A stretch of 62,850 bases of DNA, counting the filler, from Dugesia japonica (lineage: Eukaryota), in NCBI GenBank assembly GCA_001938525.1. It is 5 parts of 5 records of this genome, joined end to end, with 100 filler letters (N's around TTAATTAATTAA, not from the genome) between each part and the next. Parts side by side here need not be neighbours in the genome. Positions count along the whole stretch, not along the records: positions 28,170 to 41,681 come from MQRL01590048.1; 4 more parts are not named here. One strand, written 5' to 3'. Position numbers and translations under genes: made by a program. The notes beneath the pieces were generated by a model. The model made no database searches, was not told the DNA's origin, and saw only the letters and a list, made by a program, of their open reading frames with translations. Shown in pieces: positions 7,779 through 62,748 of this stretch. Within the stretch, counting starts at the first letter, position 1. Each line of letters starts with the position of its first letter.

Positions 7779-8070
7779 TTACAATTGCAATTATTGCGAA
7801 AATAATTGGTGAATGTAACCATTGATCGTTTTTTAGAATTCTTTTAAAATAAAAACATCGATAAAATTTGTTTTTTATTGATTTCTTGAGATTGATTCGG
7901 ATATTTCAACTTTGTTTTCGTCAGTAATTGACTTAAAAAAGAATTGAATTTTAAAAAGTATTGAAAAAGTCAATTCCTGACGAAGACAAAGTCGAAATAT
8001 CGAATAAATCTAAAAAAAAACAATAAAAAAAATTTTTTGATAGAAGCTTTTATTTTAAATGAAATATTAA
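7779..8070. mobile_element. Penelope-like element terminal repeat (pLTR) in inverted, hairpin arrangement
   Basis: Arms about 7837-7935 and 7966-8068 are imperfect reverse complements, and each carries a hammerhead core. The leading block ttacaattgcaattattgcga..aaccattgatcg recurs near 12373, 18633 and 44248. Confidence 0.7.
7973..8005 (+). ncRNA. Minimal type I hammerhead ribozyme (PLE-type)
   Basis: ATTC-CTGACGA-A-GAC aaa GTC-GAAA-TA-TC-GAAT: helix I ATTC/GAAT, CUGANGA and GAAA cores, 3-bp helix II, palindromic helix III ATAT, UC cleavage site. Confidence 0.72.
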
Positions 8071-9849: not shown

Positions 9850-9949
9850 NNNNNNNNNNNNNNNNNNNNNNNNNNNNNNNNNNNNNNNNNNNNTTAATTA
9901 ATTAANNNNNNNNNNNNNNNNNNNNNNNNNNNNNNNNNNNNNNNNNNNN
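9850..9949. other. Artificial scaffold linker
   Basis: N44 + TTAATTAATTAA (9894-9905) + N44; identical at four places. Confidence 0.97.
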
Positions 9950-10989: not shown

Positions 10990-12360
10990 ATGTGACACTA
11001 AATTCTAATCTAACATAAAAATATGAAATCCATCATAGAAAATATTAACCCAACATATAAAAGTTACATAAATCCCATGATAAATTATAATTTAACATAC
11101 AAAAATTCCAAACCAACTTATACAGTCAATACATTCAATAAAAGTGACACTTTCAATTATTTGATACAATTAAGACCTATAATATACTCAATATATTTAA
11201 TACATTCAATATAATCTATCGATTTATTAAATTTAATATATTTAACCTATTTATTTCATCAAGATTACTTAATTATTCTATTCAGTACAATCATAAAGCC
11301 AATGAACATTGCAAGCATAATACAATTTATCGTTTAAGTCAAATATACTTAATAAACTAAAAAACATTCAAAAATCTAAATAAACCAAATTTAATGCATT
11401 CATAAAGCTAGATATAACAACCACGGAAGAAATATAAACAGGGGGAAAAATTTGACAAATCAAACAGGGACAAAACTCTAAAATACTACTACGGTAAAAT
11501 TTAAATATATACAAGGACAAAACTTTTAAGAACAACCTTGTAAAAATTAACTATTAACCGAAATAAAAATTAAATACTACAAAGGAAAATTAACCGATGA
11601 AAAATTGCTACCAGAGCAAAACTTTAAAATATCACTAGAAGTAAAAGTTAAAAAACCTAACAGATGTAAAACTCAAAAACAATATCAAAGTAAAATTTTA
11701 AAATACTAACAGAGTCAAAATTCAAAATCAATATACTAAAAATTAACCTATGTGAAAATTCTAAAATGAATAGATAGAAAATTAAATACCGCCGGAATGA
11801 AAATTTAAGAATAAGCCTATGAAAAATCTTATATAAAAATTAAATACCACTTTAGAAAAAATTTTAAAATACCAACAAGTCAAAAATATCACTTGTGCAA
11901 AATCCATATATAAAAAATTAAATACTACTGAGAAAACTTCTAAAATAAACCGTTGAAAATCATTTATAAAAATTTAACTACTTAAAAATTAACTGCATAA
12001 ACTTAACAGATAATACTGGTGAAAAATTTTAAAATATTAACAGTTAAAATTAAAAACAAATACACTAAAAAACTAACCTATGTGAAAATAATACCGGGTA
12101 AAATTAATATATATAAAAGAAAAATTTGAAAATTAATTCCAGAATAAACCTATGAAAAAATACTATATTTGTACTATACTATATATATAACATTAAAATT
12201 CATATATAAATCTATGAAAAATTTTACATAAAAAAATAATTAAATACCACCTGTGAAAAATTCTAAAATAACTACTTAAAAATTAATCCATGAAAAATTA
12301 CTCTATCTTAACATTCTAAAATATTCCCCATGAAAAATTATAGATTAAAAATTTAACCTA
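10990..12360. repeat. A-skewed dispersed repeat with degenerate internal units, copy 1
   Basis: Collinear with 42860-44230 (shared taatatactcaat..caatataatctatcgatt, ttaagtcaaatatacttaataaactaaaaa, aaatactaacagagtcaaaattc). Recurrent aaattaaataccac and aaatactac units. Confidence 0.85.
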
Positions 12361-12372
12361 ATTAAAATCATT

Positions 12373-12560
12373 TTACAATTGCAATTATTGCGAGAATAAT
12401 TGTTGGACATAACCATTGATCGTTTTAAGAATTCATTTAAAATAAAAGCTTCGATCAAAATTTGTTTTTTGGTTTTTGATAACAAGTCGAAATATAGAAA
12501 TGTTATCAAAAACCAAAAGAATTAATTCTGATCGAAGCTTTTATTTTAAATTAATTAATT
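12373..12560. mobile_element. PLE terminal-repeat fragment with inverted arms
   Basis: Same leading block as 7779; aaaataaaagcttcgatca / tgatcgaagcttttatttt inverted pair. Confidence 0.65.
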
Positions 12561-14864: not shown

Positions 14865-17800
14865 TAGATTTTTTCGTCAAATTCATCTTCACTTTCAGAG
14901 TTATTTTTGATAAAAGGACGTCTTTGATCGATCATTAAAGATAAATCATTGGAAAAGGTGTTGGAATTTTTCTTTTGTTGCACTTGTTTATCGATATCTG
15001 TGCCTTGAAATTCTAATAAGATTTAACATTAATAAATTATCAATCTATGAATACTTCTCGCAGACATTTTATTCTTAAGTTCAGAAAGGAAATCTATATA
15101 TAAATATGACAATAATTAATGATAAATAAACAAATAACCATTGGTCACAACTCCATCTTTCGAATCTGAAATTAAATTTATTTTTATTGCTTTCTTTTGT
15201 CCTCTTATGACATATTTAATTTTCTTCAATAAATAGAAACAATTTCAGAACTTATAAATTATGTAAAAAAAGATGGCAAATATTTGATAAAAAATAAATA
15301 ATAATTTAAAATAAAATTTTATTGTTATATATTTCAACGGATCAACAGTNNNNNNNNNNNNNNNNNNNNNNNNNNNNNNNNNNNNNNNNNNNNNNNNNNN
15401 NNNNNNNNNNNNNNNNNNNNNNNNNNNNCTGAATATAAGATGGCTATAATTCTTTATTTTTAAATTTTAACAATTTTTCAACATAAACTCATTATAATTA
15501 CTTACAACAGAATTTGAGATAAAAATTAACAAACTCAAAACAGTCCTCACACTCAAAACTAGAATTCATTGATGATTTAAATTTAGAATCCAAATATTTC
15601 GCCATCTTATACTGGGCTGTGCAAACCATAGATAAAACTGGTCGCATAGGAACTCCAGTTTTATGAACTTTAGGTAAACCATAGTTTGCTGGCTGAGATC
15701 CTTTAGAATGTAGACTTTTAACGATTTTTTAGAAATATGTCCATGTAAGATTAGATTATTAATCAATTTATTTAAATATTCCTCATCTTTCATTGGTGGT
15801 AATTATAAGATTGGTAATAACCTTGTTAATAAATCCCATACACCAATTTGTTTATGTTCTAACCTTGTTTATCAATTTAAATGTAATGGATGTGATTCCA
15901 CATACATTGGAGAGACTGCCGGTCATCTCTGTACAAGGGTTCATGAGCATGATCGTTTTGGTGGTGGTAGTAATATTGCTGAGCATAAAAAACAATATAA
16001 TGTGAATGTTGAAATTTCAAATTTTAAAATTTTATCTAAAGAGTTCGAGAAGCGTTAAGGATTAAATTTCATAATTAATTATAGCATTAATGTACAGACA
16101 ACTCTTTCAACTTTTTAGATTTAAAATTTTAAAATTTTTGAATTTTTATAGGTTTTAATAGGTTTGTAAAAGTTTTTTTCATTTTATATGCTCGTAATTT
16201 TTAAAATAATTTAGCAATTTTATTTTTTATGGGTCTTTTGAAAATATTAATACATTTGAAATTTAAAAAATTTAAAATTTTTGAAAAATATTTTTTGATT
16301 TTTATAAGTTTTAAAATTGTAAAAATATGTTTAATAAAATTGTTATAGAAAAATTTTTTTAGAATAAATATTTTAAATTAAGAATTATGATTATAGCCAT
16401 AGTAAAGTTGATTGAATCTTTTGAATAGTAGAAATATATAACAATATGGTTGAATAGTAGAAATATATAACAATATGGTTGAATAGTAGAAATATATAAC
16501 AATATGATTGAATAGTAGAAATATATAAAAATAAAATTTTATTTTAAATGCCTTTATTTATTTTTTATCAAACATTTGCCATTGTTTTTTGTATATTTAA
16601 AAAGTAATGTAATATAGAGAAAATAATCATGAGGAAACTATTAAGAAATTAGATGGTTGACGACCTGATGGATATAAATTAAAACTAACTNNNNNNNNNN
16701 NNNNNNNNNNNNNNNNNNNNNNNNNNNNNNNNNNNNNNNNNNNNNNNNNNNNNNNNNNNNNNNNNNNNNNNNCGAGTCTACTATTAAATGTAAAAAATGT
16801 AGTTACAAAACTTAACGAAAATATTTTACTTATTTTTTGATCAAAGCAAATTATTCTCAATTTATTTTAAAAAATTAAATTGAAAACAAAGATATTAGGC
16901 GTCGGTGACGAATTTCATTGTTAAGGTTTTTAATCTGTTCATTAAAATTAAAAGAAGTTGTCAATCAAAATTATTTAAGTAGGTATGTTTACAAAAGTGC
17001 TTATAAAGCATCTGAAAAGTCTTTTCGGAAAACAATTTACGTAAATTTCGATTGTTTCACGATTTTTACTATTTTACAATATTTGAAAAGACATTAAAAA
17101 GGCATTAAAATATTGACATTAAAAAGACAGGTTATCCAGAAAAATAGAAAAATTAATATCCAAAATTAATGAAAGATACGATTAAAAAATTGGGATCATT
17201 GAATATGAAGTGTGAAAGTTATATACATCTCCAAAGATATCGAAATTTGAATACCAAGAAGGATAAAATAAGAATAATTAATATAATTAAATAAAAGCAA
17301 ACTTAAAAATTACAGAACTTTTTATTTTGCTATCTTACCTGGTTTTATATTTATTAATGTTAATTTTGTTTTATGTTTTCTAATTTTACGAAGTGCGATA
17401 ACCATCAAATCTGAATACGTAAGTTTATTCAGAAATGAAGTTGCAAAAATTAAACTTCATATGTTTCATCAACAATTGATAAAATAAATATTCAAAATGT
17501 AAGGGGCTAAAAACTTTACCAAAAGCTCTCAATTGAAACTCAGTTCGACTATCAGAAAACCAATTAAATATAAAAAGCAGCATTTAAAATAAATTTTATA
17601 TGCAATACAAAATGGTAGGAAAGTTTAATTTTAAGGCATACATACCTTGGAATTATTTAAATTCATATTAAGCACAATGACAAATTATTTTTCATATTTA
17701 TTTAACAACAATTGTTAAGAATTTGTAAATTACTGATTTACTAAAGATTTTACAATTTAAAATTTTTCAAATTACAATTTACCTAATACAAATTGTTTAT

Positions 17801-19180: not shown

Positions 19181-19451
19181 AATATAATAGAATACAACTA
19201 GCAAACCGAAGGGGTGCGCAGCAAAATTTTAATCTAATCACTATTACCAAAGAATTTTCTCATTAAAAATCATTCTTAAATATAAATTTCATTAAAATAG
19301 TAATTAATTATTAGAAAATATTAAAAAAATCAAGTTAAATGTTTATAAAAGCTTTAATAATTAATTTAATTAATTAATTTAATTATCATTAATTAATAAT
19401 TATAAAATTCAAAATTTAATAAATAAAATTATTGAAATATATCCAACTCAC

Positions 19452-20270
19452 CCAATTGGANACAGTTGAAGTTGGATTACCTAAACATTTATAAATGAAA
19501 TCGGATAAATGTTTCCTCGAATCAGTAAGTAAATCAGTAAATTGTACATCATAGAAAATATTATCACGGAAAACTGGCATACGAAAATTTTTATAATCTT
19601 GGAAATTTAAACATTTTATAATATCTTCGGCAACCTTTTTATTGGCTGTTGCTGTCAATGCTATACAAGGAATATTGTTGAGAATTGTGTTTCTTAATGA
19701 GCCCAGTTTCAAGTAATCCGGCCGAAAATCATGGCCCCATTCTGATACACAATGAGCTTCATCAATAACAAAGTAGTTAAGTAAATTTTGACTGCTTAAA
19801 GTTTTAGCAATGTTCTGAAAAGTATTTGTTTGACATTGCTCAGGGGTTACATATAATAGTCGAATACTAGTTTTATTTTTAAAGCAATTAAACGTTGTCA
19901 AATCGGAAATAATCTCATTTCGATCAGAAGTTTTAGTTTTAGAATTTATTGTTCGAGCACAAATATTTCTTTTCGATAAATGTAATATTTGATCATGAAT
20001 TAAAGCTAATAATGGACTAATAATAATAGAAACTCCTGTTTCATGATAAATAGCAGGAAACTGATAACATAGAGATTTTCCAGAACCTGTAGGCATTGAA
20101 ATAAAAACATCATTTTTAGCTAAAAAGTTAAAATTATTTTCAATGAATTTAATCTTTTAATAAAAATAACAATTTATAATATTTACAATAGCTTCTTTTT
20201 GTAACTGGCTTTTGAACTCATTAAACCCGAAAATTTCTTTTAAAACTTTATATAGTTTATTTTCTTCCAT
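19452..20270 (-). CDS. RECQL5: ATP-dependent DNA helicase RecQ5, exons 1-2 (partial)
   Basis: Exon 1 20270-20171 (MEENKLYKVLKEIFGFNEFKSQLQKEA), 51-nt GT-AG intron, exon 2 20119-19452 with MPTGSGKSLCYQ, DEAHCVSEWGHDFRPDY, ALTATA and RecQ5-like FRDNIFYDVQF. Donor GTGAGT at 19451. The rest lies beyond the scaffold end. Confidence 0.92.
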
Positions 20271-23319: not shown

Positions 23320-25035
23320 TAAGTTATTTAAAAATTTTACTTTATTATTCAATCGTCATCTTAAAATTTACAACCAAATTTGTTTTAGTAAAAATTTTAA
23401 TTTTTTACTTAATTGTCATTCCAAATTTTAAATCAAATATTCATTTATTAAATTTTTTTTATCTATAATGTAAATCTTTTTTGAAATAAAAAATGATCAC
23501 CAATCACACAAAAATTTCAAGTCACCTTTTAAAACACACTCACATCCCCATTTTTAAGAAATATTTTGATCTTCTCTACATTTCTTTTGACATGTTTTCC
23601 ATTTGTATCTTCCTGGATATAACGTCTAATATGAATCTTTCCTTTGATCTTATAGGGTCCTTCAAAACGAGCTTGGTTTTTTGTTTCAACTTGCACTCCA
23701 TCACCAACTTTGACTTGTCTTTTGGTCAATATCTCTTTATCTTGTTCTTTGTGCTCTCTTTGAGAATCTTTTTTGTACAATTTTTCTCTGCTTATTTTCT
23801 TTACAAATACGATTTTAGCATGGCTTTTCCAGATAGTCTCCTGTTTTGTAGCATTCAAGGTAAATTTGATCTCTGGCATTACATCGGCCTAACCTGAGGT
23901 TTTCTTTTCTTTACGTGTCGCATTTATCATATCTTGCATGGTCCTAAACTGCCTCTCGATTTGACCATTTATGTTATCATGATATTGACTTAAAAACCTG
24001 AGGGTAATTCCATGTTCAGCTACGAAATCGTTCATTTACCGTTTTTTACCGTCTTTTTTGTTTCTTCCTTCGTTTTTGTTGTTAACACCTTTGCTTTCTG
24101 GCATATTTTACAGCTTTGGACAACCTGTTGTACATTGCTCCACAATTTTTTCATGTTATATTTATACTTCATATACGCTGCAATCTATTCTGATCCAGCA
24201 TGACACATAAGATTGTGTATATTCTTTATAACTTCCTCTATTTTATCATCAAGTATCCATGTACCTCATAATTTTCTCCAAAATAGCCTTGTTTTTCTTG
24301 AATATCTACTGTATTTAACATCCTTGTTTTAATTTTTCATTTTTGGGATCTTCATATGACATCAGACATTGTTCACATGTATTGCATTTACTCCTTGACA
24401 ACATATCCAGATTTGTATGAAGCCATCATTTTCTATATTCCAATTTTATATCTAAACTGCTCAAATAATTATTCCAAGTTTGAAACTGTGATGTGATCGG
24501 CTTCTTGGTATTTAGTATAAAAGTGATAGCTTTATGGCCTGTTCTAAAGATAAATCACTTCCCATATAAGTAATATTTGAAATGAATGCAAAAGTAATAA
24601 ATTGTGAGTAATTCGTTTGCATAGTACAATATCCTTTCTCATGATTCGTTATTACATGTGACCTATATTCAATAACTCTTTCTTGCCCATCGTTGTCCCT
24701 TTGAGATAGTACTGCCCCAATCGTATCGAAACTCGCATCCATGTCCAAAATAAATCATCCATTTATGTCAGTAAAACATAATATTGGAGACATCATTAGT
24801 GCTTCTTTCATTCCATTAAAACTTCTTCTAATTCATTCACCTATTCAATTTTCTTGTTATTCGATCTACTACAAAGTTGTTCCAGAAATCTAGCGTTTTT
24901 CGAAAAATCTTTAATAAACGTGCGATAGTAATTGCAAATTCCCAGAAAGCTTCTCATCGTCTTAACGCATTTTGGTTTACCAAAGTTTTTAATTGCTTCT
25001 ATTTTAGTTGGATCTGGTTTGACACCTTCTTTACT
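23320..25035 (-). mobile_element. Ty3/Gypsy 3' half (RH, integrase, PPT, 3' LTR)
   Basis: GVKPDPTKIEA..SFLGICNYY; DASFDTIGAVLSQ; NGQIERQFRT; FEGPYKI; PPT aaaaatgggga then TGTGAG near 23553. Same family as 49500-50800. Confidence 0.9.
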
Positions 25036-35345: not shown

Positions 35346-38300
35346 TTCGGTGGCTGTTTTGATCTCAAAGGATATCTATGATTCTCCATAACTTTTTGTT
35401 GATCTGGATTTTTCTGTATCTTTTTGGCTTTTATATGTTTATCTTCAACCATTTCCGTGTTTGCTGGTATAGATTTCTAGCATCGATTAGCATGCACAAG
35501 TATTGGTTCATGATTTAGCTTACTTTTTAGCTGTAACAGTACATTAGTCTTTGTAGTTTTTACAATTTCATATGGTCCTTTAAACGGTCTTATCAACTTT
35601 GGTGGCAATACTTTTTTATTCGAATGTCCTTCCAGCATTACTAAATCTCTGACTATAAATGAATTTTATTTAGTTGCCTGTCATATCTTTCTTTCATTGA
35701 TTCTTGATTGAATTTAATGTTTAATCCGGCTCTGGCCCACACCTCTTGTAACCTTTCTCTCAATTCTATTGCATAATCTTTTTCATTCATGTATTGTAAA
35801 ACCTTGGAACAGAAGATTAAATAAACTGGCATATTTGCATGTCCTCGATACATCATAAAGAATGGTGATTGTCCTATACTTGGTTGAATCGCGTTTCTGT
35901 ATTCAAATAAACATGAAAGAATATGTAAATTCCAGTCGGTTTGATTTGCATTGACATATGATGTGAGCATATTAGAAAGTTACATCATATTACATCATCG
36001 ATATACACGATGGCGTGATCTACATATATTATGTAAAGTTCATCACTCTCTGAAAAATGGCTGGTGCTTCGGTTAAACCGAAAGGTATTACATTATACTC
36101 AAACAGTCCTTTATCTGTAGCAAATGCTGTGATTGCTTTATCCTTTTTTTCCATCTCTACTTGATGAAATCCCAAATTTGCGTCTAAGATTGAAAGTTTT
36201 TTGGTGTTTCGTATCATTTCCTCTATTAACGGTAGAGGGAAAGCATTCTTTATAAATACTTCATTAACTGCTCTGTAATCGATACATAAACGTATTCATC
36301 CTCCTTTTTTCTTAACAACAATTAATGGTGTACACCAGGGTGATTTACTTGGTCTGATTAGATTATATTTGCGTAGTAGTTCAACTCTTTCATTAACAGA
36401 TTTTAGTAATTGCTCCAGTATTGGATATGGACGTTCTTTGATTGGAGCAGAATTTGTTAATTTGATATCGTGTTTTAAAATATTGCATATTCCTAAATTA
36501 AATTCATGTTTAGAGAAAATATCTCCGTATTTTCTCAGTAAATTCAGGAAATCCATTTTTTCTTCCATTGACAGATCTGAGTTCATTACTGAAGGTGGAT
36601 CCTACGTTTCTATCTCCTCAACATCAAGTCATGATGTCTTCTAAATATAAGATGCTTTGCTATAAATGAACAGCATCCAAATATTAATTTCCAAATGCAT
36701 CCAATCATTTTATAGATGCCTGCTATTGATAATGTCTGTTCAGCTGGTACTTTGATTATTACTAGTATACTATTTAATTTAATAGTATACCTGAAATTCC
36801 TGCCATGGTTGTTCCAAAAGCAGTGAAGCCTTCCAATATGCATCCCCATATTTAAAGTGCTACACTTTTAGCTACATGCTTACAATGTTCTATTCCGAAC
36901 AATAGATTATAATCTGGGATTTGAATCCCATTCCGATAGATAGTTTTTATAATTTCTAAAATTCCTCATTCTCTCACTTGGGGAAATAATATCGTTTTTA
37001 ATGCCTCGTCTATATCTAGATTTATATGTCGATTATAGATTTCGTGTCGTTCAATTTTAAGGAGGTAAAAGAAGGGTTGGAACAGAATATACTCTGATAA
37101 TGTCATTAGTTAAATTTTTATGCGATGTCAAACATTTTTTTGTTTGTTATATAAAATTTGAATTTAAAATGCTTTATTTTTAATTATTTATTTTTGGATT
37201 GTTCTTGATTAACAAGTTAGGGAAATTCAGTTAAAATAAAGTTAATTAATAACTCTAATTTTTTATTTAAAGATAATCTAAATTCAGTTAAACTAAATTA
37301 TGTAAACTAATTTATTGGTTTTAAATCGATTGATTTTGTTTTAATTAAATTTTTTTAATTAAATAAAAACAATTTTTAATAAATAATCACGTTCTTGAAA
37401 CTACTTTGTTTCTTTTTTAATTAACTGAATTCATTTAATTTAATGATTTAATTTCAATTGAGTTTGAATACTTTTGTTTAAATTACATTCTTTGGTTCCA
37501 AATATTTAGGAAATTCTCATTAATAGTTCATTTTATTTAACATTTCATTAAATTTGCATGAGTAATAATTTTACTGCGATTAATGTAATAAAGCTATGCC
37601 GCAATTAGGGACCAAAATAACGTCATTTCGTTTTTCTTTATTGTCTATTTGAAAGAAACAATAAGTTTGTGCCAACGAATCGACTCACATTCAATAGGAC
37701 ACTAACGAAAATAATTTAAATAACAAATTAAACTAAAAATGTAGTATCATTGAATTTATTAAAAGATTTTACTTTAAATGAGAAACTTTTTTTTATGGGT
37801 CTGGTCCGTTGGACCAAAATAAAAGGGTGAACTCTTGCATTCATATTAAATGGGAAGTTACCGGAGCGATCCCGAAGATGATCTTAGAACAACCATTAAA
37901 ATGCTTGCGGTTTTCATGAGCATACCCCTAAGTGATTATTTTGAATATCAAACTCATGAAAATTCAACAAAGACTTGAATCAACAATTTGCTACCAGAGT
38001 ACTACTAATAATGATTCTGTTCGAACGTTAACGTTATAATTTAATGAAAATTTAGTTTAACTATTTGACATGAGATGATACCCTGACTTTAATTAATGGT
38101 TTAATTAGAAACTTTAATAAGGATTAGGTAAATTAGGTAAGGTAAAATCCTCATTTTAGTAATAATTTTGAATTAATGTTTGAATAACTGCTTGTGATTA
38201 CTACTGATAGTCTAATAATAATTGAATAGCGTAATAATACATAATTTAATAACCAGTTTTGTTAATGACTTTATTTGATTTCGATGCTAATTTGGTTCCG

Positions 38301-38692: not shown

Positions 38693-40304
38693 TAGGGTTT
38701 TTCATAAACAGTGGTTTTCAAAAAACAGCTGTTACTGTTTTTAATTTTAGAAAAAACAGCTGTTTTTACTGTTTTTTATTTTTCTCAAATTTCTTAAGGT
38801 AAAAGATAACATTTTATCGCTAACTAACATTTCATTTTATCATATATAAAAAAAACCATTTAACAATTATATTTCTACTTCTTATAATAGTATTTTAAAC
38901 ACACAAGATCTTGAAGTGATCTATCAGAAAGACTCGATCTTATTTTGGTGCAAAAGTTACTGCACACTGAAAATACGCGTACCACATCTGAAGATGTTGG
39001 TTTAATGTAAAGAATTGCGTTATATAATTTTTGTTGGTTTTCAGTTCACTGACCTGTATTTTTGAATAATGTAAATTCTGATTTGATCCACTTAAACACT
39101 GATTCTAATCTTGAGAAATGTTATGATAATTCATCTTTTTGGAGCATAAACATAATTTTCCAATCTTTTTCGGTGCTTACTAATGTTACTTTTTCGCGAC
39201 TAAGATTATCGACAGTTAATTTTACAGGTTTCATTGCTCTGTTTAAAATCAAAATTTTCAATCATGGTTAATGCTGGAAATCAATTAATGTCTCAAAAAC
39301 CGCTTAATATCGAGATACAGTTCTATCTCGTGGACTATTTCCTCATACTTTGCCAAGAAACACATTATTGTTAACAGGAGATTTTTTGATAAAGCTAATA
39401 AGTTTCCTTGACTTCTCTAATAGATCGTGATAATACATTTTTTGCTCTATTGCATCATTATTTAAAATTTCTATATCCATTCCATCATCAAATGTGTCAA
39501 TTTAATCAATTCCATTACTATCCATAATCTGATCATCATCATCCTCTTGAATTTTTCTTTTATATGATGTATTAAAATTGTCCGATTACATCAATACATC
39601 GAATATATTTTTTATTGACAGCAGCACCATTCTACGTTGATCCAACAATATCTTTAGCTAAATTAATGTTAAATCCAACTAAATGATTTCCTATTGCCTC
39701 AAACATATCAAGAGTAGAGCATGAACCAAGGATACGCACAAGACCAGTTTTAATTGTTGCTCTATCATCACTGCTATGAATATTAACGCCAAAATGTTGT
39801 CTTCCTCGATTAGTTATGTACTCATCAACACATGTTAAATTTTACTCCATTTTCAAGCTTTTCTTTTATGTTTGCAATTATTTTATTTCTCTTTTCTTCA
39901 TAATTTGTGGCATATTCCTATATCAATGACATCGCTGATAGCAATAATTATGTATTAATATCAAAATTATTTAATCTATATTTTCACTTACTTTTGTAAT
40001 TATTTGAACAGTATTTTTATTTAAAATTTTCATCGATAAGATAAACAAAATCACTAATACAATGAAAAGTTTTCCGTTTTTCCGTTACATTCTGATGTAA
40101 GTGCTTTCAAATCTGAAGATTTTAAAAAGATATTTGAAATTTTATCATTACAAAAATACATTTATTTTGATACATAAATTTATTTAAATAATAAATTATT
40201 TGCATTGAGAATTTATTTTGAAAAAAACCGATATTTACTGTTTTTAGATTTTCGCAAAAAACAGTGGTTTTACTGTTACTGTTTAACAGTTTTGAAAAAC
40301 CCTA
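38693..40304 (-). mobile_element. hAT transposon, internally deleted and decayed
   Basis: TIR TAGGGTTTTTCA / TGAAAAACCCTA; perfect 8-bp TSD ATCTCAAT (38685-38692, 40305-40312); transposase pieces CVDEYITNRGR, NGAAVN and dimerization motif KPTSSDVVRVFSV..RSSLSDRSL. Confidence 0.93.
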
Positions 40305-40409: not shown

Positions 40410-41357
40410 GGAATATCGGGAAATTTCTCACTGAAAGAGGCGTAACAGTCCTTGCAAAGATCGAGCTTTGTCGCACCGCTAACTAACCAGATGGCGATCC
40501 TGTACAATTCGTGAACTAGTGAAGGAACCGATCATGATTCGTGGTGGATGTACCGAAAAATCTCCGGCTACGAGAATTGGAGATCCAGGACTAACAAGCC
40601 GAGATAACGAAGTTGAAAACCCACAACAAACTGTTAAAAGATCAGATCCAGCTACATGAACAGAACAGGGATCAATTTCGAAACCTCTCAGGAACTCACC
40701 AACCATCAGGAATCGAGACACCATCTGGAAAACGTCTGGATCAATGTATTGAGTGAGCAATCCCAGTGCTCACCGTGCATCTAGAACCGCTCGAGACAGA
40801 AGTATAAAATGAGTTAAAATTGATTTTATGCTGTTTTCTTGTAACAATCGAATAAATAATAAAAAATGATAATATAAAGTAAATGCCTCTGAGGATTATA
40901 AACTTAATTAAACTCGTGATAATTAAAATCTAAGTTACATATGATGAGTCTGAATTAAAGCTATTGTCAATTTATTTAAACTTGCTAATGTCAGAACTTA
41001 TATTGCTCACGAAATTGTTTAATTTAGAAAATGCCAATTCGCAGTTCGAAACCATCACAGGAGAAAGTATTGTTAGAACAGCAAAAGTTACGGAAGAAAG
41101 TCAAAGAACTGAATGATACGATCAGCTTTACCCAAAAAATGTGGGCGGTATTACGAAAACGGTTGAGTGTGAGTCGACGGAGGAAACTCACACTCATCAC
41201 CAACAACAGAATGCTAGCAGATGTCATCAAATCGTATGCCGACCGCGAGGCTTCAATTCTTGCAAATTTCAAACTATTGTGGAAAGATTATGGAAATAAA
41301 GATCGAACTGATTCTAATTGTGTCATTACTGAGGACACGATATTTGGTTCTCCGTGA
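40410..41357 (+). pseudogene. Unknown two-block coiled-coil module, copy 2
   Basis: Block A: EGTDHDSWW plus AEITKLKTHNKLLKDQI. Block B: intact 108-aa ORF 41031-41357 with NNRMLADVIKSYADRE. Confidence 0.55.
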
Positions 41358-41681
41358 AGTGTAAAATATAGCGATAACTAGATTCTTTTTCATTCATTTG
41401 ACAAAAACAGATATTTCACGAGATTGAACTGAGCAAGAACTAACATCTGAAGGACTTTCTCAAAACGGAATACAGCATAGTCCCGCATGAACCATGGGGT
41501 AGATAATTAACACAGGTGGTTGATCAAATTTCTGCCGGTTTTTAAGTAACTACCCATAGTAAAGAAATGCAAGAAAAAACGAGATAGCGAACGAGAAAAA
41601 TTCTGGAAATATCGAAAACCTAGAAACGCAACATTTTTATGAAAAAATTTTAACCGGATTTGTGTAAAGTTTTTAGTTAAT

Positions 41682-42859: not shown

Positions 42860-44230
42860 TTGGTTTAAGACCTATAATATACTCAATCTACTTAATATAT
42901 TCAATATAATCTATCGATTCATCAAATTTAATAAAACCATTCAATACATTTGATATATTTATTTCATCGAGATTTCTTGATTACTCTACTCAATACAGTC
43001 ATACAGCCAATGATCACTGAAAGCATGGGACACCTTATAATTTAAGTCAAATATACTTAATAAACTAAAAAGCACTCAAAAATATAAATAAACCATATAA
43101 CATAATAAACTCATAAAGCTAATACAATGTATCTACTAATCTAATCATCATAGTCACTTAATTAAAAATGCTAACTTCATTAAAAACAACTAATTCATAA
43201 ATTAATTAAATAATTAATTAAAAAAATCAGATCCTATACCAATTATATTGAACCCTAATGTAACAAATGGACTAAAAATTTAAATAGATATAAAAACCAC
43301 TGAAATATAAACAGGGACAAAACTTTAAAATATTACTAAGAGCAAATATATTAAGAACAACCTAGTAAAAACTAACTATTAACCTAAATAAAATTTAAAT
43401 ATTACAGGGAAAAGTAATCGAATAAAATTAAATACCGTAAGGGAAAATTTTAAAAACGAAACAGAGGTAAAATTAAAATACTAACCTGAAACAAAATTAA
43501 ATACTATCGAAGCAAAATTTACAACCAAACAATTCTAAAACTCTAAAATACTACCAATGTAAAAATTAAAAATACTAACAGAGTCAAAATTCCAAACTAA
43601 TACACTAGAAATTAACCTATATTAAAATTCTAAAATAAACACATGAAAAATCTGATATAGAAAAGTAAATGCCATTGGAAAATGAAATTTAAGAATAAAC
43701 CCATGAAATATCTTATATAAAAAACTAAATATCACTGTGGAAATATTTTCAAATACTGACAGAGTCAAAAATATCACTGTTTAAAATCGATGAATTAAAT
43801 ACCACTGAGAAAACGTCTAAAATAAGCCGGTGAAAATCTTATATACAAATTTAACTACTTCAAAATTAACGACATAAAATTAGCAGATTAAAATACTACT
43901 TGTGAAAGTCTTATATGAAAAATTAAATTATAAAATCAACTGCTAAAAATAAACATTTTAAAATTTACAGTCACAAATTACTTTATCTTAAAATTCTAAA
44001 ATATACTACTAAAATCTTATTTAGAAAATTAAATGCCACTGAAAAATTCATTTATAAAATATTAAATACCATTGAAAAAAAATTATATAGTAAAACTTTA
44101 ACCTAATTAAAATTCTTAAAATTAACTGTTTAAGATATTACCCGTAAAAATTTTGCATAAAAAATTTGATTCTTAATTTAACTGCTGAAAACCAATCGAG
44201 TAATATTTTTAAATAACATTAAATTAAAAT
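42860..44230. repeat. A-skewed dispersed repeat, copy 2
   Basis: Collinear with 10990-12360. Confidence 0.85.
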
Positions 44231-44354
44231 TTCTTATTTCTTTTATAATTACAATTATTGTGAGAATAATTGTTGGACTTAACTATTGATCGCATTTGAG
44301 ATTTCATTAAAATAAGATAAAGCTTCGATCAAAATAAAATTTATTTCTAAAAAA

Positions 44355-44388: not shown

Positions 44389-44999
44389 AATTTGGCTTCT
44401 TGAGATATTCAATACAATAGATCTTTGTTACTAAATTCTTTAAATTTTATCAAAGTTTTATTGGTTTATTTTTTTTAAATTTAATGATTTTAATTTTTAA
44501 AAAAAAATTTAAAATCATTAAATTTAAAAAAAAATAAACCAATAAAATTTTGATAAAATTTAAAGAATTTAGTAACNNNNNNNNNNNNNNNNNNNNNNNN
44601 NNNNNNNNNNNNNNNNNNNNNNNNNNNNNNNNNNNNNNNNNNNNNNNNNNNNNNNNNNNNNNNNNNNNNNNNNNNNNNNNNNNNNNNNNNNNNNNNNNNN
44701 NNNNNNNNNNGAAATCTTCTTATTTCTTATTATTGTATTATTATTTTGTATTTGTAATTATTATTATTATTGTATTTAAACTATACATGTGTTATATGTA
44801 TAATTTATTATGTGTTTCTGATTATGTATGCATTATATGTTTAATTTATTATTTACCTATAATTATGTTTGTATTTATAATTTATAATTATTATTTGCTA
44901 TTTATAATAAATTTTTTAAGATTTAAAATATTAATGCTTACAATAAATTAAATTGAAATATTAAAACAAGGAAAAATTCTGGATATAAATTGAAATAAT

Positions 45000-49500: not shown

Positions 49501-50800
49501 TTTTAGAAATAAACTGCTATCATATATAAAATTGGAATATATAAAAGGATTGGTTCATACAAATGCGGATTTGTTGTCAAGAAGTAAATGCGATACATGT
49601 GTACAGTGTTTAATGTTACATAAAGATACCAAACAAGGATGTTAAATACAATATATATCCAAGAGAAGCAAGGCAATTTTGGAGAAAATAATGAAGAAAA
49701 TTAGATACCTGATGATAAAGTAGGTTATTATGACGATACGCCATTTATTATGTCATGCTGAAGCAGACAAAATGTAGCAGCGTATATAAAGCATAAATAT
49801 AACGCAAAGAATTTGTGAATCTAAATACAAGAGTTTGTCCAAAGCTGTATAACATGCCATAAATCTAAAATGTTAACAACAAAAACGAAGGAAGACACGA
49901 AAATGACACAGCATGCCGGAAATTTTGAATCGATATGTATAGATGTGCGTGGACCATTGCCAGAGACAAGAAGTCGAATAAAATATGTTCTTGGTATAAT
50001 AGATCGATGTAGTAAGAATGAAGCTTTGACAGCAATGGCAAGACAAAATGAAGATACCATAAGGAAAGCAATAATGGAAAAGTTGATATTTAACTTTAAG
50101 TGTCCAAGAGAAATTAGAGTTGATTGTGGAAGAGCATTTGAGTCTAAGCCAATGAAATAATTTGCAGCTGAACATGGCATTACTCTCACGTTTTTGAGTC
50201 CATATTATCATAACACAAATTGACAATTTGAGAGACAGATTAGAACTATACAAGATATAATAAATGCGACACTTAAAGAAATGAAAACCTCAGATTAGGC
50301 TGATATTGCCAAAGATATAATTTATTTTTAATGCTACAAAACAGAAGACAACTAGAAAAAGCCCTGCTGAAATTGTATTTGGGAAGACAATAATCAGAGA
50401 AAAATGGTACGCCATAGATTTTCAAAGAGAGCACAAAGAACAATTGAATTGATGTCAATTAAAAGACAATTTAAGGTTCGAGATGAAGTCTTAGTGAAAG
50501 TTGAAACAAGAACTAAGATCGTTATGGAGGGCCCTATAAGATCAAAGGGAAGGTTCATGACAGAAGTTACATCCTAGAAGATACAAACCTCTACAAAGAA
50601 ACGTAGAGAAGAGCAAAAATCTTCTTAAAAATGTATGTAAGTATGTTTCGAAAAGCTAGTTGAAATTTTTATGTATGGTTAGAAATCATTTTTCTATAAA
50701 AATTGAAAGCTAAGAATTAAATTAGAAATTAAAGTAAATTAAATTAAATGTTTTGTATAAAAATAATGAACAGTTTAAGGATTAGTTTAAATAGTTTTAT
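49500..50800 (+). mobile_element. Ty3/Gypsy integrase remnant plus 3' LTR
   Basis: HTNADLLSR; ICIDVRGPLP..IIDRCSK..RVDCGRAFES; SPYYHNTN; YGGPYKI. Homologous to 23320-24500. Confidence 0.9.
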
Positions 50801-58615: not shown

Positions 58616-58927
58616 TTTTATGTTCAGCTAGAACGCATAAAAATTTAAGTAATAAAGTTTTCGAAAAAATAAATGACAAACGCGAAAAACGAGCAGAAAA
58701 TTAAGAAATTAGTGCTGGACCAGAAAGTTGATTATCATAATAATTATTATCATTATTATTATGTAATTATTATAATTAAAATTGTTGGAAGATTATTATA
58801 AAAAAAACAAAAAATGAAAATTGAGCGTAAAGGACCCTAATTTGGAAACAGTAAATATATTTTGCGAAAAAGAAGAATATAATGTTTAAATAAATAATAA
58901 AATATTATACAATACTATAATGATATA

Positions 58928-60227
58928 CAGGGTGTTATTGAAACATGTGGCAAAAAGTTAAGGAATTATTCCTTGCCTTATTTTTTGAACAATTATATAG
59001 TAATACTTTTTTCTAGGTCGTCTCGTTTCAAAGAATACATTTAAAGATTTAAAAAAACACAAAAAATTCACGAGAAAAGACCCACGAGCAAGTCTACTAA
59101 AATGCGCCGGTGCTCCATCATGCACAAACCACATTACTTTTCTCATTGCTAATGGTATATCCTCAAGCAACTCAGGTAGCCTTTCGTCCGAAAAATTGTG
59201 GTATACCTCAGCGGTAAGCGTTCCTGGTAGGATCACCGGTTCAATTAAAAAACATTCACAATTCCAACCCAAACGTTTAATGAGAACTGATATAAGAAAC
59301 GATCTTCACGTATCTCATGTGGATTTTCTTCCGCCCATACATGATTATTATGGAAATTCGTTATGGCATTTTTTGAGTAACTTGCTTCATCGGTAAACAG
59401 AATTAGGCTCAGTAGTTTAGAATTTTGAGACAATGTTTGTTTCAGCCATTGACAAAATGCGGTTCGTGGAGAAATTTTTCTGTTAGGAAGTGCTTGAACG
59501 CGTTGAATGTGGTATGGGAAAAGCTTTAGTGGTCTCAATATTTTCCACACAGTGTAATTACTTACATTCAATGCGTTTGCTATTATTTTAGTTTAAATAT
59601 GTGGATATTCCTCTAACAAATCACACACATATCCATCAATTTATATTATTCTTCCTATTTTTGGTCTTCCTGGTCCACTGATGTGTTTAAACGGGCCTGT
59701 TTCATGAAGATACGGATGAATTCTTTCAAAATTTTTCCTATCAGGAAAATGACGTTTTGGAATTCGTTCGGCGTACAACTGCTTAGCCTTTAATGAATTT
59801 CCATTAGCAAACTCATACATAAAACCTATGTCCGTCTTTCGGCGTTTTTATATTGATTCGTGATAAGAGATTTAAGCTATTTTTAATATTTATTTTATAG
59901 AGATCTATATTAATTTTAAAAAGGCTTACTTTTTAGAATGCTTAAACAAAAATATTTTAATTAATGTTGACTGATAATAAAGATATTATGTATAATAAAT
60001 ACATTGCAACAAAGTTTATTTAATTTTACTGATATTGTTATTGGTATTTGTGTTATTTTGAAAGTAAAGTTGAAATTTTTTATAAAAAATATTCGTGTTT
60101 TTAAAATCTTTATCAGCATGTATTTTTAAAACAAAAACATTTTGAAAGATATAATGATATATTTATATGTATAAACATCCAAGGAATAATCCCTTAAATT
60201 TATTCCCCATGTTTAACTAACATCCTG
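58928..60227 (-). mobile_element. Tc1/mariner-superfamily transposon, decayed
   Basis: TA-flanked ~50-bp imperfect TIRs (CAGGGTGTT..ggaattattccttg / caaggaataatccc..AACATCCTG); HTH N-terminus, ILFTDEASY, WFVHDGAPAHF. The third catalytic motif is deleted. Confidence 0.93.
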
Positions 60228-60288
60228 TATATTAAAGGGGTTTCTACGACACTTTTTCTTTACTATAATCACGCTTTTTAGCGTTTGA

Positions 60289-60493: not shown

Positions 60494-61710
60494 TCATTGA
60501 TTAATCTGGTCCAGTCACCAGTGTTTTGTCTGTCTGAGGTAAAATAAATTCGGAATTAGAAACAAAATAACTTAGTCACTTCAAGTCAGACAAAGACTTA
60601 TCATAGTAACAAGGCCAATAATCAGAAGTCATACGATGTGACCGACTAAAATTCCAACACCAACTAGTTCCATTGTTCAAAACTGATAACACCTGAGAGA
60701 GAAGAGAGAGCACACCGAATAATGATAGATGGTCATTTAATCAGAAGGTCGGATTTTAAAATGTTCGATCAGGATTAGTTGGTTATTAAACAGCATCAAT
60801 CTTGTGATGGAAAAACAAAATAAAACCGAAGACACGAAAAAAATAGAAACTCTTTTGAAAGCAATTTTTAAATTCTCGTTAAAACAAATTTTTTAAGCAC
60901 TTAAAAACAATTCTTACATTTGGATTGATTTTTATACTACTAAAATTTTGCTGACTTAAAGAATTTCCTGCCATTACAATTTCAATCGAAGGAGAAATAA
61001 TTTAAAAGTAGATATTATTATTAATAATAACAATAATTGATGCCATTCATACTTTTGATCCGAGTGCACCCTAAAAATTCGATGATTGAGCTCTCAAGAA
61101 ACAGAATTACGAAATATGTTAATGCGATGTCCTAATTGAGGAACGGAATGTCATTACATCAAATTGAGAATGTTTTAAGGGATATCATATCATTTTTTAT
61201 GCTACTTTTCTCTTGACTTGATCGGATTTTGTAGTATAGATACAGTTTTTTAATTCCCGTTAAAATATAATGATTTTTTTGAATTCAATATATTTACGTA
61301 TCGTTAATGAAATGTTTCTTAATTAATTAGAAATTTAGGATTCATCTATTAGATTGTAAAGCAATATTAGTGAAACTTTAAGCAAATTGATAATTAAATA
61401 TAGAATTTTTCGTGAACGTTTTATATGTTCTATAAATCTAATTTTTATTTTTTTTATATTATTGAGCATTACGTACGAAATGAGTTGTTAAGGAAATTGT
61501 TGTTAGAGATTTGTACTAGCAAGGACAAAGACAAATATCTGCTTTAGTGATTATTTTCTGTAGTCCGCGTTACAGAAACGGGACGAAGACCTGATAGTCC
61601 ACAGGCCGAAGAAATTGCTTTACTGATATAGAGTTCATTTTATTTATTTTATAAATTTCTTTTAAACCTAAGGATTTTTATAAAACTATTAATTTAATGT
61701 AACATAGAAA

Positions 61711-62645
61711 ATGACGGAATACTATGATGCCGCTAGTACTTACAAACGGCACAGTTGATGGGACGTTTTGTATCCTGTGGTGGTGTACAGTGGACTTACT
61801 TGATGAGAAAAAATCTATTTATGAGAAGGATAAAGCAGAGATTAAAAGTTAACAAGTATTTATCAATAAGAACTGCGAGATAAAGCAGCAAATCAAGGAG
61901 TTTTACTTGAAAGTAAATTATCCCAGAGACAAATGATGATGCGTGCGATGACAGAGGATGTTAATGAGGCCACCTGCCACCTCATGAAACATCGGGAGTT
62001 GATGAGAAGTATAGAGGACTGATTATTGATGCGAATGTTGGACGATACCAAGGATTAGAAAGAGATTCAGGATCTGGTAATCGTAAATGTGGAATCCTTA
62101 AATCAAAAAAATGTCTCCATTGTAACTTTGTTGTTCATTATACTAATGAATTCATGTGATACGTATTTCACAATGTGATTTTATTGTTTTGATAATGGGC
62201 TGCAGAGATGGCGAATAGTTAATTAACAATAGTGGACTTAGTTTCTTTGGTTAAAGAAAGAATAGTTTCTAGAATTGATAAAATTTAAAATATTAGGCTT
62301 TAGCTTCTAATATCATCTAAGCGAGTTTATCGTCAATTTATTATAATCATTGTCTAATAACTATTCATCCTAAACTATTTTAATGAGTAAAGCCAATGAT
62401 GAAACATCAGTCAAGATAGAGTTGCTAGATAATCAAACAAGATGGAAAGAAAAGCGGTGGCAATGAAACAATCATTTAAATATGCGCACTTGAAAGAAAA
62501 TGATTTATCCCTCCAACATACTAACAGAATGATGGCGGACATAATAAAATTCTATGCAGACAGAGCGGCAATTGTTTTCAATAATCTTTTGGCTGAGTTA
62601 TCGACCGGCAGAGAACGAAAAAATTATCAAGGAAAGTTCAGTTGA
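61711..62645 (+). pseudogene. Unknown two-block coiled-coil module, copy 3
   Basis: Block A: VDGTFCILWW..KAEIKS..EIKQQIKEF. Block B: 62383-62645 with LSLQHTNRMMADIIKFYADR. Confidence 0.55.
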
Positions 62646-62748
62646 TCTGGACTTGTAATCGGCCGGCAATTGTAAATAAACAATACATGTTCAACGGCAA
62701 TGTTTAGATCAATTTCTTTGGTTATGTACGACCAGTTTTATGTATATT

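Follow-up and report, generated by a model that had tools for sequence, protein, structure and literature searches.

A conserved family of small, predicted coiled-coil proteins encoded in three decayed, repeat-associated loci of the planarian Dugesia japonica

Introduction

The Burro/GYPSM1 elements of planarians are giant Ty3/gypsy elements that occur in thousands of copies and carry accessory ORFs; a review describing them reports decayed fragments from one species and a SUMO-like domain from the polyprotein (PMC6431247). The same review attributes small coiled-coil ORFs to the Terminon/Athena retroelements (PMC6431247). On the host side, gypsy and Burro elements are held in check by PIWI in planarians (PMC8532177), and in Drosophila the SUMO-dependent recruitment of SetDB1, which uses a SUMO-interacting motif (PMC13108219), is required for piRNA silencing (10.1101/533091). 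The catalogue of accessory genes carried by transposons in animals is poor, and a mechanism has been assigned to few of them. In plants, the VANC proteins of VANDAL elements are transposon-encoded, DNA-binding anti-silencing proteins.

An unannotated module of two coding blocks, an upstream block A and a downstream block B separated by an AT-rich spacer, had been predicted from sequence in three diverged copies in D. japonica. Here, the module is analysed within the window, i.e. the whole stretch of 62,850 nt in which the copies were noticed. The conserved part is most likely a stand-alone small gene, termed ORF B, and on balance a very abundant mobile element probably carried the module as an accessory cassette, of which the three loci would be old copies in decay.

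Materials and methods

Block B of copy 2 was used as the query in a phmmer search of 1.84 billion representative sequences, which returned six matches at E values of up to 0.001; a second search and a cluster look-up raised the number of relatives to at least 14. Seven public sequencing runs contain the stretch or part of it, three of them with more than half of its words; no RNA run was listed among those containing it. Reads and contigs were placed at 80% likeness and depth was summed over contigs, a quantity that does not represent copy number. Three RNA runs were sampled in part (approximately 25, 25 and 6 in 100).

The mark applied to models of paired chains was calibrated on proteins of known state. 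Of the microbial proteins, 21 of 30 whose structures had been solved as pairs attained it, as against none of 23 solved alone; among eukaryotic proteins, it was reached by 17 of 29 pairs (seven of 16 in animals) and by none of 30 single chains.

Setting of the window

The window is AT-rich (GC mostly 0.15–0.36 in 1-kb bins), consists of five scaffolds with N-flanked linkers between them at 9850, 18816, 28070 and 41682, and contains many decayed fragments of Ty3/gypsy pol and gag. One small gypsy family is represented by two copies with 76–77% DNA identity, at 23442–24451 (minus strand) and 49524–50750 (plus strand). A large decayed gypsy element at 32550–37110 (minus strand) comprises a protease-like start, a reverse transcriptase (Pfam RVT_1, E = 1.6e-14) and a deletion into the integrase end, together with approximately 3 kb of extra coding sequence containing signal-like and transmembrane-like stretches; no gag adjoins it. 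A segment of this extra sequence at 33270–33656, without a Pfam match, is taken by us to resemble a DEDDh exonuclease.

Several further features were observed. An intact RecQ-like helicase exon of 246 residues at 19419–20156 (minus strand; Pfam DEAD, E = 3.2e-25) is probably part of a host gene amid the repeats. An AT-rich repeat of 1 kb, in which no coding match was noticed, is present at 11496–12461 and 43320–44335 (69% identity), and a short piece of it recurs at 7783 and 18634. A decayed transposase without a Pfam match, presumably Tc1/mariner-like, is situated at 58900–60230 (minus strand) between inverted repeats of about 135 nt (58923–59056 and 60098–60232). Reverse-transcriptase and GIY-YIG fragments on opposite strands at 15500–16050, again without a Pfam match, are presumably Penelope-like. 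A near-perfect AT-rich hairpin of 140 nt at 44431–44572 is probably a miniature element or an assembly palindrome; the two Rfam matches obtained in the window at E values of up to 1 both fall on this hairpin, no Rfam family was identified, and a tRNA search of the sequence was negative.

Arrangement of the three copies

The copies are located at about 25080–26105 (copy 1, minus strand), 40410–41357 (copy 2, plus strand) and 61711–62645 (copy 3, plus strand) on three scaffolds separated by linkers, with their blocks in the same order, and all six peptide motifs quoted in the original prediction were recovered at the positions and on the strands given there. The succession of a GC-rich block, an AT-rich spacer and a second GC-rich block is present in each of them, the distance from the WW motif to block B being 850 nt in copy 1, 675 nt in copy 2 and 757 nt in copy 3. 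The copies are broken and are nested among gypsy and hAT remnants. Conservation of the motifs at the protein level, which had been proposed for both blocks, held for block B in all three copies; for block A it was unsupported in copy 3 and borderline between copies 1 and 2.

Block B as a coding sequence

In copy 2, ORF B (41031–41357, plus strand) is open from ATG to TGA and encodes 108 residues of the coiled-coil family, lacking the acidic C-terminal motif. In copy 1 (25040–25324, minus strand) a GTG occupies the start position, six in-frame stops are present and the C-terminus is truncated at the junction with a gypsy pol. Copy 3 (62383–62658, plus strand) begins with ATG and changes frame near 62440 and near 62585; the family C-terminal motif is found in another frame and is followed by AATAAA. 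The ATG of copies 2 and 3 and the GTG of copy 1 match the start site of the outside relatives.

The pairwise protein similarity claimed for block B exceeded that of shuffled sequences for copies 2 and 3 (score 76 versus a shuffled maximum of 51); plain alignment did not separate copies 1 and 2 (48 versus 47) or copies 1 and 3 (43 versus 56) from the shuffles. When the window was searched in six frames with a profile built from five outside relatives alone, block B of all three copies was matched and nothing else, with 68.8 bits for copy 2, 43.6 bits for copy 3 and 37.9 bits for copy 1; the next match reached 3.9 bits and the best among 20 shuffled windows 9.4 bits. Copy 2 was the query by which the relatives had been found, so that an independent test of the profile is provided by copies 1 and 3 only. 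A profile of 14 sequences gave 70.6, 45.6 and 42.5 bits for the three copies. At the level of sequence comparison, the homology of block B in all three copies is confirmed.

A codon-position bias was observed in the copy 2–3 core, where the differences over 29 codons (12, 8 and 19 at the first, second and third positions, respectively; pS 0.76, pN 0.36) fall mostly at third positions; because the core was picked for protein similarity and its synonymous sites are saturated, these values indicate coding ancestry and are not a clean dN/dS. Of six listed variant sites inside ORF B, five were uninformative and one clearly favoured the family residue (present in 13 of 14 relatives), which is carried by other genomic copies and is absent from copy 2.

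Relatives of ORF B in other samples

Five of the six phmmer matches are short proteins with a common core; P0001, an Enterococcus Cna B repeat surface protein, was a chance repeat match and was excluded. The 14 relatives are intact proteins of 83–112 residues with identities ranging from 27 to 100%, none of them named, and each is derived from a single contig of 0.5–2 kb (ENA, JGI and Logan); none of the 14 is present in NCBI or UniRef. In 11 of the 14 the first residues are MS or MA, and the distance from this start to the core is similar; gene callers write methionine for any start, so the common first methionine alone proves little.

Longer relatives (197–2,000 residues) were absent from 7,999 scored candidates, a result that the tool's own warning makes weak evidence, and a word-based search with copy 2 ORF B gave none from two candidates. 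Pattern searches gave 93 and 22 matches in viral contigs and 363 and 42 in metagenome contigs, none of which was confirmed as a locus with flanks, and block A was not confirmed among ten pattern matches in viral contigs. The original statement that the module contains no known domain agrees with searches of Pfam (for block B, weak coiled-coil matches below the cut-offs), PDB sequences (block B, best E = 0.13, no family match), BFVD viral structures (a single match, E = 7.1) and PHROGs (nothing convincing; four single-member matches with E values of 0.004–0.008). In the Atlas comparison the best value for copy 2 was 0.79; P0005 reached 0.92 to unnamed clusters with low shared-feature counts, and these serve as leads only.

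ORF B is a conserved, previously unnamed family of about 100 residues with intact natural members. A literature search found no description of the protein or its core peptide; an earlier listing in the primary Burro paper or its supplement is possible, and a repeat library may already include the DNA of ORF B with no name given to the ORF.

Block A

Block A of copy 2 (40410–40807, plus strand) is GC-rich, contains stops and frame changes as well as the motif DHDSWW, and ends in ETEV followed by a stop. Block A of copy 1 (25620–26108, minus strand) is in a single frame with two in-frame stops, contains DPDLWW and a long predicted C-terminal helix, and ends in ETAV followed by a stop. The candidate in copy 3 (61709–62125, plus strand) has a raised GC content, a WW motif and many stops. 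The spacer of copy 2 (40808–41030, plus strand) is AT-rich (GC 0.21–0.24) and is partly common to another genomic copy. A further segment that had escaped the original prediction lies 690 nt farther upstream in copy 1 (26660–27120, minus strand); it is GC-raised and internally repetitive, carries a second D-x-D-x-W-W at 26689, and its score against copy 2 block A was reached by none of 200 shuffles.

Between copies 1 and 2, the frameshift-aware score of block A was reached by one of 100 shuffles, and that of another part by four of 200 at the protein level and six of 200 at the DNA level. Copy 3 was not significant (11 and 46 of 100 shuffles; 29 of 200 twice). The homology of block A between copies 1 and 2 is accordingly graded as borderline from these alignments. 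D-x-D-x-W-W occurs three times against 0.01 expected, a count in which the pattern was drawn from two of the matches and the third alone is independent.

Pfam searches of the block A frames gave no gag or ORF1 domain and weak coiled-coil matches below the cut-offs. A single-sequence model was poor (pLDDT 59, pTM 0.28), with the C-terminal half as one helix. ETxV is a class I PDZ-binding tail motif, and the ends of block A (ETAV and ETEV, two cases) fit a putative tail of this class. Probably, block A represents the final coding portion of a second gene, which lies upstream and evolves faster.

Abundance and expression

In DNA contigs, the bin covering the ORF B core had a depth of 8,196, and at one site a depth of 33,178 was contributed by 75 contigs. 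Block A was not deep (16–34), and contigs with 0–2 differences from the copy 2 locus had depths of 3.7–14.9. The depth of the ORF B core is far above that of the single locus, so ORF B belongs to a very abundant repeat; the high copy number that had been proposed is borne out in this qualitative sense, which is not specific to LTR elements. Downstream of copy 2 (41358–41575), repeat DNA has a depth of 1,104 at 41404–41546 and then of 74, and contigs of other copies join ORF B to this downstream DNA (41107–41505 and 41196–41516); the drop after 41546 is possibly the end of the element. Upstream, high-depth repeat DNA (37400–37971) has depths of 610–2,259 and of 32,592 at 37829–37971, and no homologue of it was found near copy 1 or copy 3.

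The segment at 37829–37971 was the deepest examined, and some RNA reads map nearby in all three runs. It can be read as a short open frame starting with the ATG at 37850. The segment matched nothing in Pfam or Rfam and does not recur in the window; the predicted RNA fold of 37780–37980 is not unusual (z = −0.59).

Across the three partially sampled RNA runs, block A received no reads. The ORF B core received a handful in one of the three runs, mostly diverged and partial and derived from other copies.

Carrier and alternative explanations

The 1.6 kb preceding block A of copy 2 is a hAT-type insertion (38693–40304, minus strand) with an 8-bp target duplication, a 12-bp perfect terminal inverted repeat and a decayed transposase (Pfam Dimer_Tnp_hAT, E = 0.0095, under the curated cut-off), and it is therefore not the carrier. 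This insert, which ends approximately 100 nt ahead of block A, is internally deleted with intact ends and is unrelated to the module; its depth in DNA contigs is 466–2,690. The family to which it belongs is multi-copy, and RNA reads were obtained from its other copies.

Copy 1 adjoins, in sense, the middle of a small decayed Ty3/gypsy pol (23530–25039, minus strand; reverse-transcriptase end, RNase H and integrase) of the same family as 49524–50750. Copy 2 is located upstream of a different, larger gypsy element without gag on the opposite strand, and copy 3 has neither type alongside. The gypsy pieces beside the copies are consistent with nesting. The window yielded neither a carrier terminus nor a target duplication, a primer-binding site, a flank common to the copies or a long direct repeat around the cassette; the scaffolds stop 324 and 192 nt past copies 2 and 3, respectively. 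Comparison of the three copies outside their blocks, in the upstream, spacer and downstream sequences, revealed no convincing similarity. As a tentative first guess, to which we give somewhat less than even weight, the cassette lies in the long terminal region, or in an accessory region, of a large Ty3/gypsy element.

The best surviving alternative, which is nonetheless unlikely, is a DNA element of the cut-and-paste or Helitron-like type of approximately 2.1 kb plus the hAT insert, bounded by 37833–37861 and 41546–41574 and carrying the cassette as cargo or as a second gene. These two 29-nt arms are 76% complementary, each falls within a high-depth segment or borders one, and their score was reached by 14 of 1,000 shuffles; intron-like spacers, moreover, would survive DNA transposition. 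The arms were, however, chosen after the fact out of 172 inverted pairs, neither recurs near copy 1 or copy 3 with up to eight mismatches allowed, and no target duplication or linked transposase was found.

In the original prediction most blocks followed splice-acceptor-like AG dinucleotides, which would suit a single spliced gene in which blocks A and B are exons of a longer coiled-coil protein. AG does precede several blocks, the spacers are AT-rich and intron-like, and the short contigs of the relatives are of a kind from which gene callers could excise an exon. Copy 3 block B, however, has no AG ahead of its ATG, and in copy 1 the final G of the proposed acceptor 'gacag' already belongs to the start-position codon, as its first base. 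No joint was listed among the three RNA runs at their low coverage. A stop codon ends the GC-rich stretch of block A in copies 1 and 2, and the shared MS/MA start of the relatives, together with the lack of longer relatives among the scored candidates, also speaks against an exon. Block B, which looks like a complete small gene, is most likely a whole gene of about 90–110 residues, and the reading as one spliced two-exon gene has little probability.

An expanded, lineage-restricted host family of small leucine-zipper-like regulators with many pseudogenes is held to be just as improbable. The relatives in other samples are intact and conserved across their whole range of identities, and host zipper-only inhibitors exist; against this, the core is deeper than the neighbouring transposon family, two of the three copies are broken, none of the 14 relatives is in NCBI or UniRef, and RNA reads are lacking on block A and confined to one run in three on the block B core. 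Least probable of all is a gene of another repeated element, either a Penelope/Terminon-like retroelement, in which coiled-coil ORFs and retained introns occur, or an endogenous Polinton-like DNA virus: neither a hammerhead ribozyme nor any other Rfam match was found (decay could hide such a motif), no relative was found in viral contigs or BFVD, and no Penelope-type reverse transcriptase lies beside any copy.

Predicted structure and possible function

AlphaFold2 predictions on 12 relatives gave a single helix spanning residues 7–88 (pLDDT 90.5). When two P0012 chains were modelled together, a parallel coiled coil was obtained in which the invariant asparagine touches its partner (score 0.52 versus 0.00 for the best of three controls; contact agreement of at least 98% between runs; pLDDT of at least 83). 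Of the seven eukaryotic pairs that had no older solved relative, only one attained the mark, so this pass may reflect resemblance to known leucine zippers. The ORF B protein is accordingly modelled as one helix of 80 residues forming a parallel two-stranded coiled coil; neither an enzyme nor a basic DNA-binding part was recognized in it.

A SUMO-interacting motif consists of a short hydrophobic core with an acidic flank. By a pattern fitted by hand, 11 of the 14 relatives have a hydrophobic–acidic tail resembling such a motif within their last 12 residues, and it also occurs in copy 3; copy 2 and three of the 14 relatives are without it. The tail is regarded as a putative SUMO-binding motif on the strength of this resemblance.

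On the dimer model, the ORF B protein would form a parallel pair through its helix with self-pairing of the invariant asparagine; every step beyond this model is one that we infer. The dimer may act as an adaptor or decoy displaying two acidic hydrophobic tails, which would most likely bind SUMO or a SUMO-like domain, and could in this way help the element to assemble or to evade host silencing. A more specific and rather improbable proposal is that countering silencing is the dedicated task of ORF B in an animal mobile element: the protein would be a rod-shaped dimer bearing a pair of SUMO-binding tails, encoded in a terminal region and so multiplied with solo LTRs. It would titrate the SUMO-dependent step of piRNA-guided chromatin silencing or dock on the SUMO-like domain of Burro polyproteins, and the upstream gene with its PDZ-binding-like tail would be a second host-interaction factor.

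The intact natural members of the family make direct testing feasible. If the repeat marked by ORF B is among the most abundant in its host, the family provides a protein handle by which the repeat can be classified and is a candidate for how the element became so numerous; should ORF B be no more than a structural or vestigial ORF of an element already catalogued, the gain is one of annotation.

Comparison with known systems

Like the ORFs of Terminon/Athena elements, ORF B is a small coiled-coil accessory ORF in a repeated element (PMC6431247); unlike there, a ribozyme motif, a Penelope-type reverse transcriptase and a telomeric repeat are absent beside its copies. With VANC it would share the role of a mobile-element accessory protein that counters silencing, a likeness of proposed function in which no sequence link was found.

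ORF B is reminiscent of bZIP proteins and GCN4 in that two parallel strands are predicted to form a coiled coil in which an invariant asparagine pairs across the interface; weak matches to GCN4 peptides were obtained (E = 0.33–0.41). The basic region of a bZIP protein has Asn-x7-Arg before the zipper, and by eye the family alignment of ORF B lacks it. No bZIP family reached the curated Pfam cut-off, bZIP_1 being matched in one of seven members at E = 0.049, and a bZIP factor was rejected on these two grounds. A gag protein or non-LTR ORF1, a match to which had been named as evidence against the original prediction, was also rejected: no Pfam gag or ORF1 family was matched, and capsid, zinc-knuckle, RRM and esterase parts are absent (Pfam and PDB for block B, Pfam for block A). 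By analogy, ORF B would act like a zipper-only adaptor rather than a bZIP factor, gag or ORF1.

The MATH, BIR, BCL2, ankyrin and env domains of Burro are unmatched here, and the available part of the review names no coiled-coil ORF of about 100 residues (PMC6431247). The AT-rich, gypsy-rich genome context described in that part of the source is nevertheless the same as that of the present loci (PMC6431247), and by this comparison the Burro elements appear to be the nearest context for ORF B.
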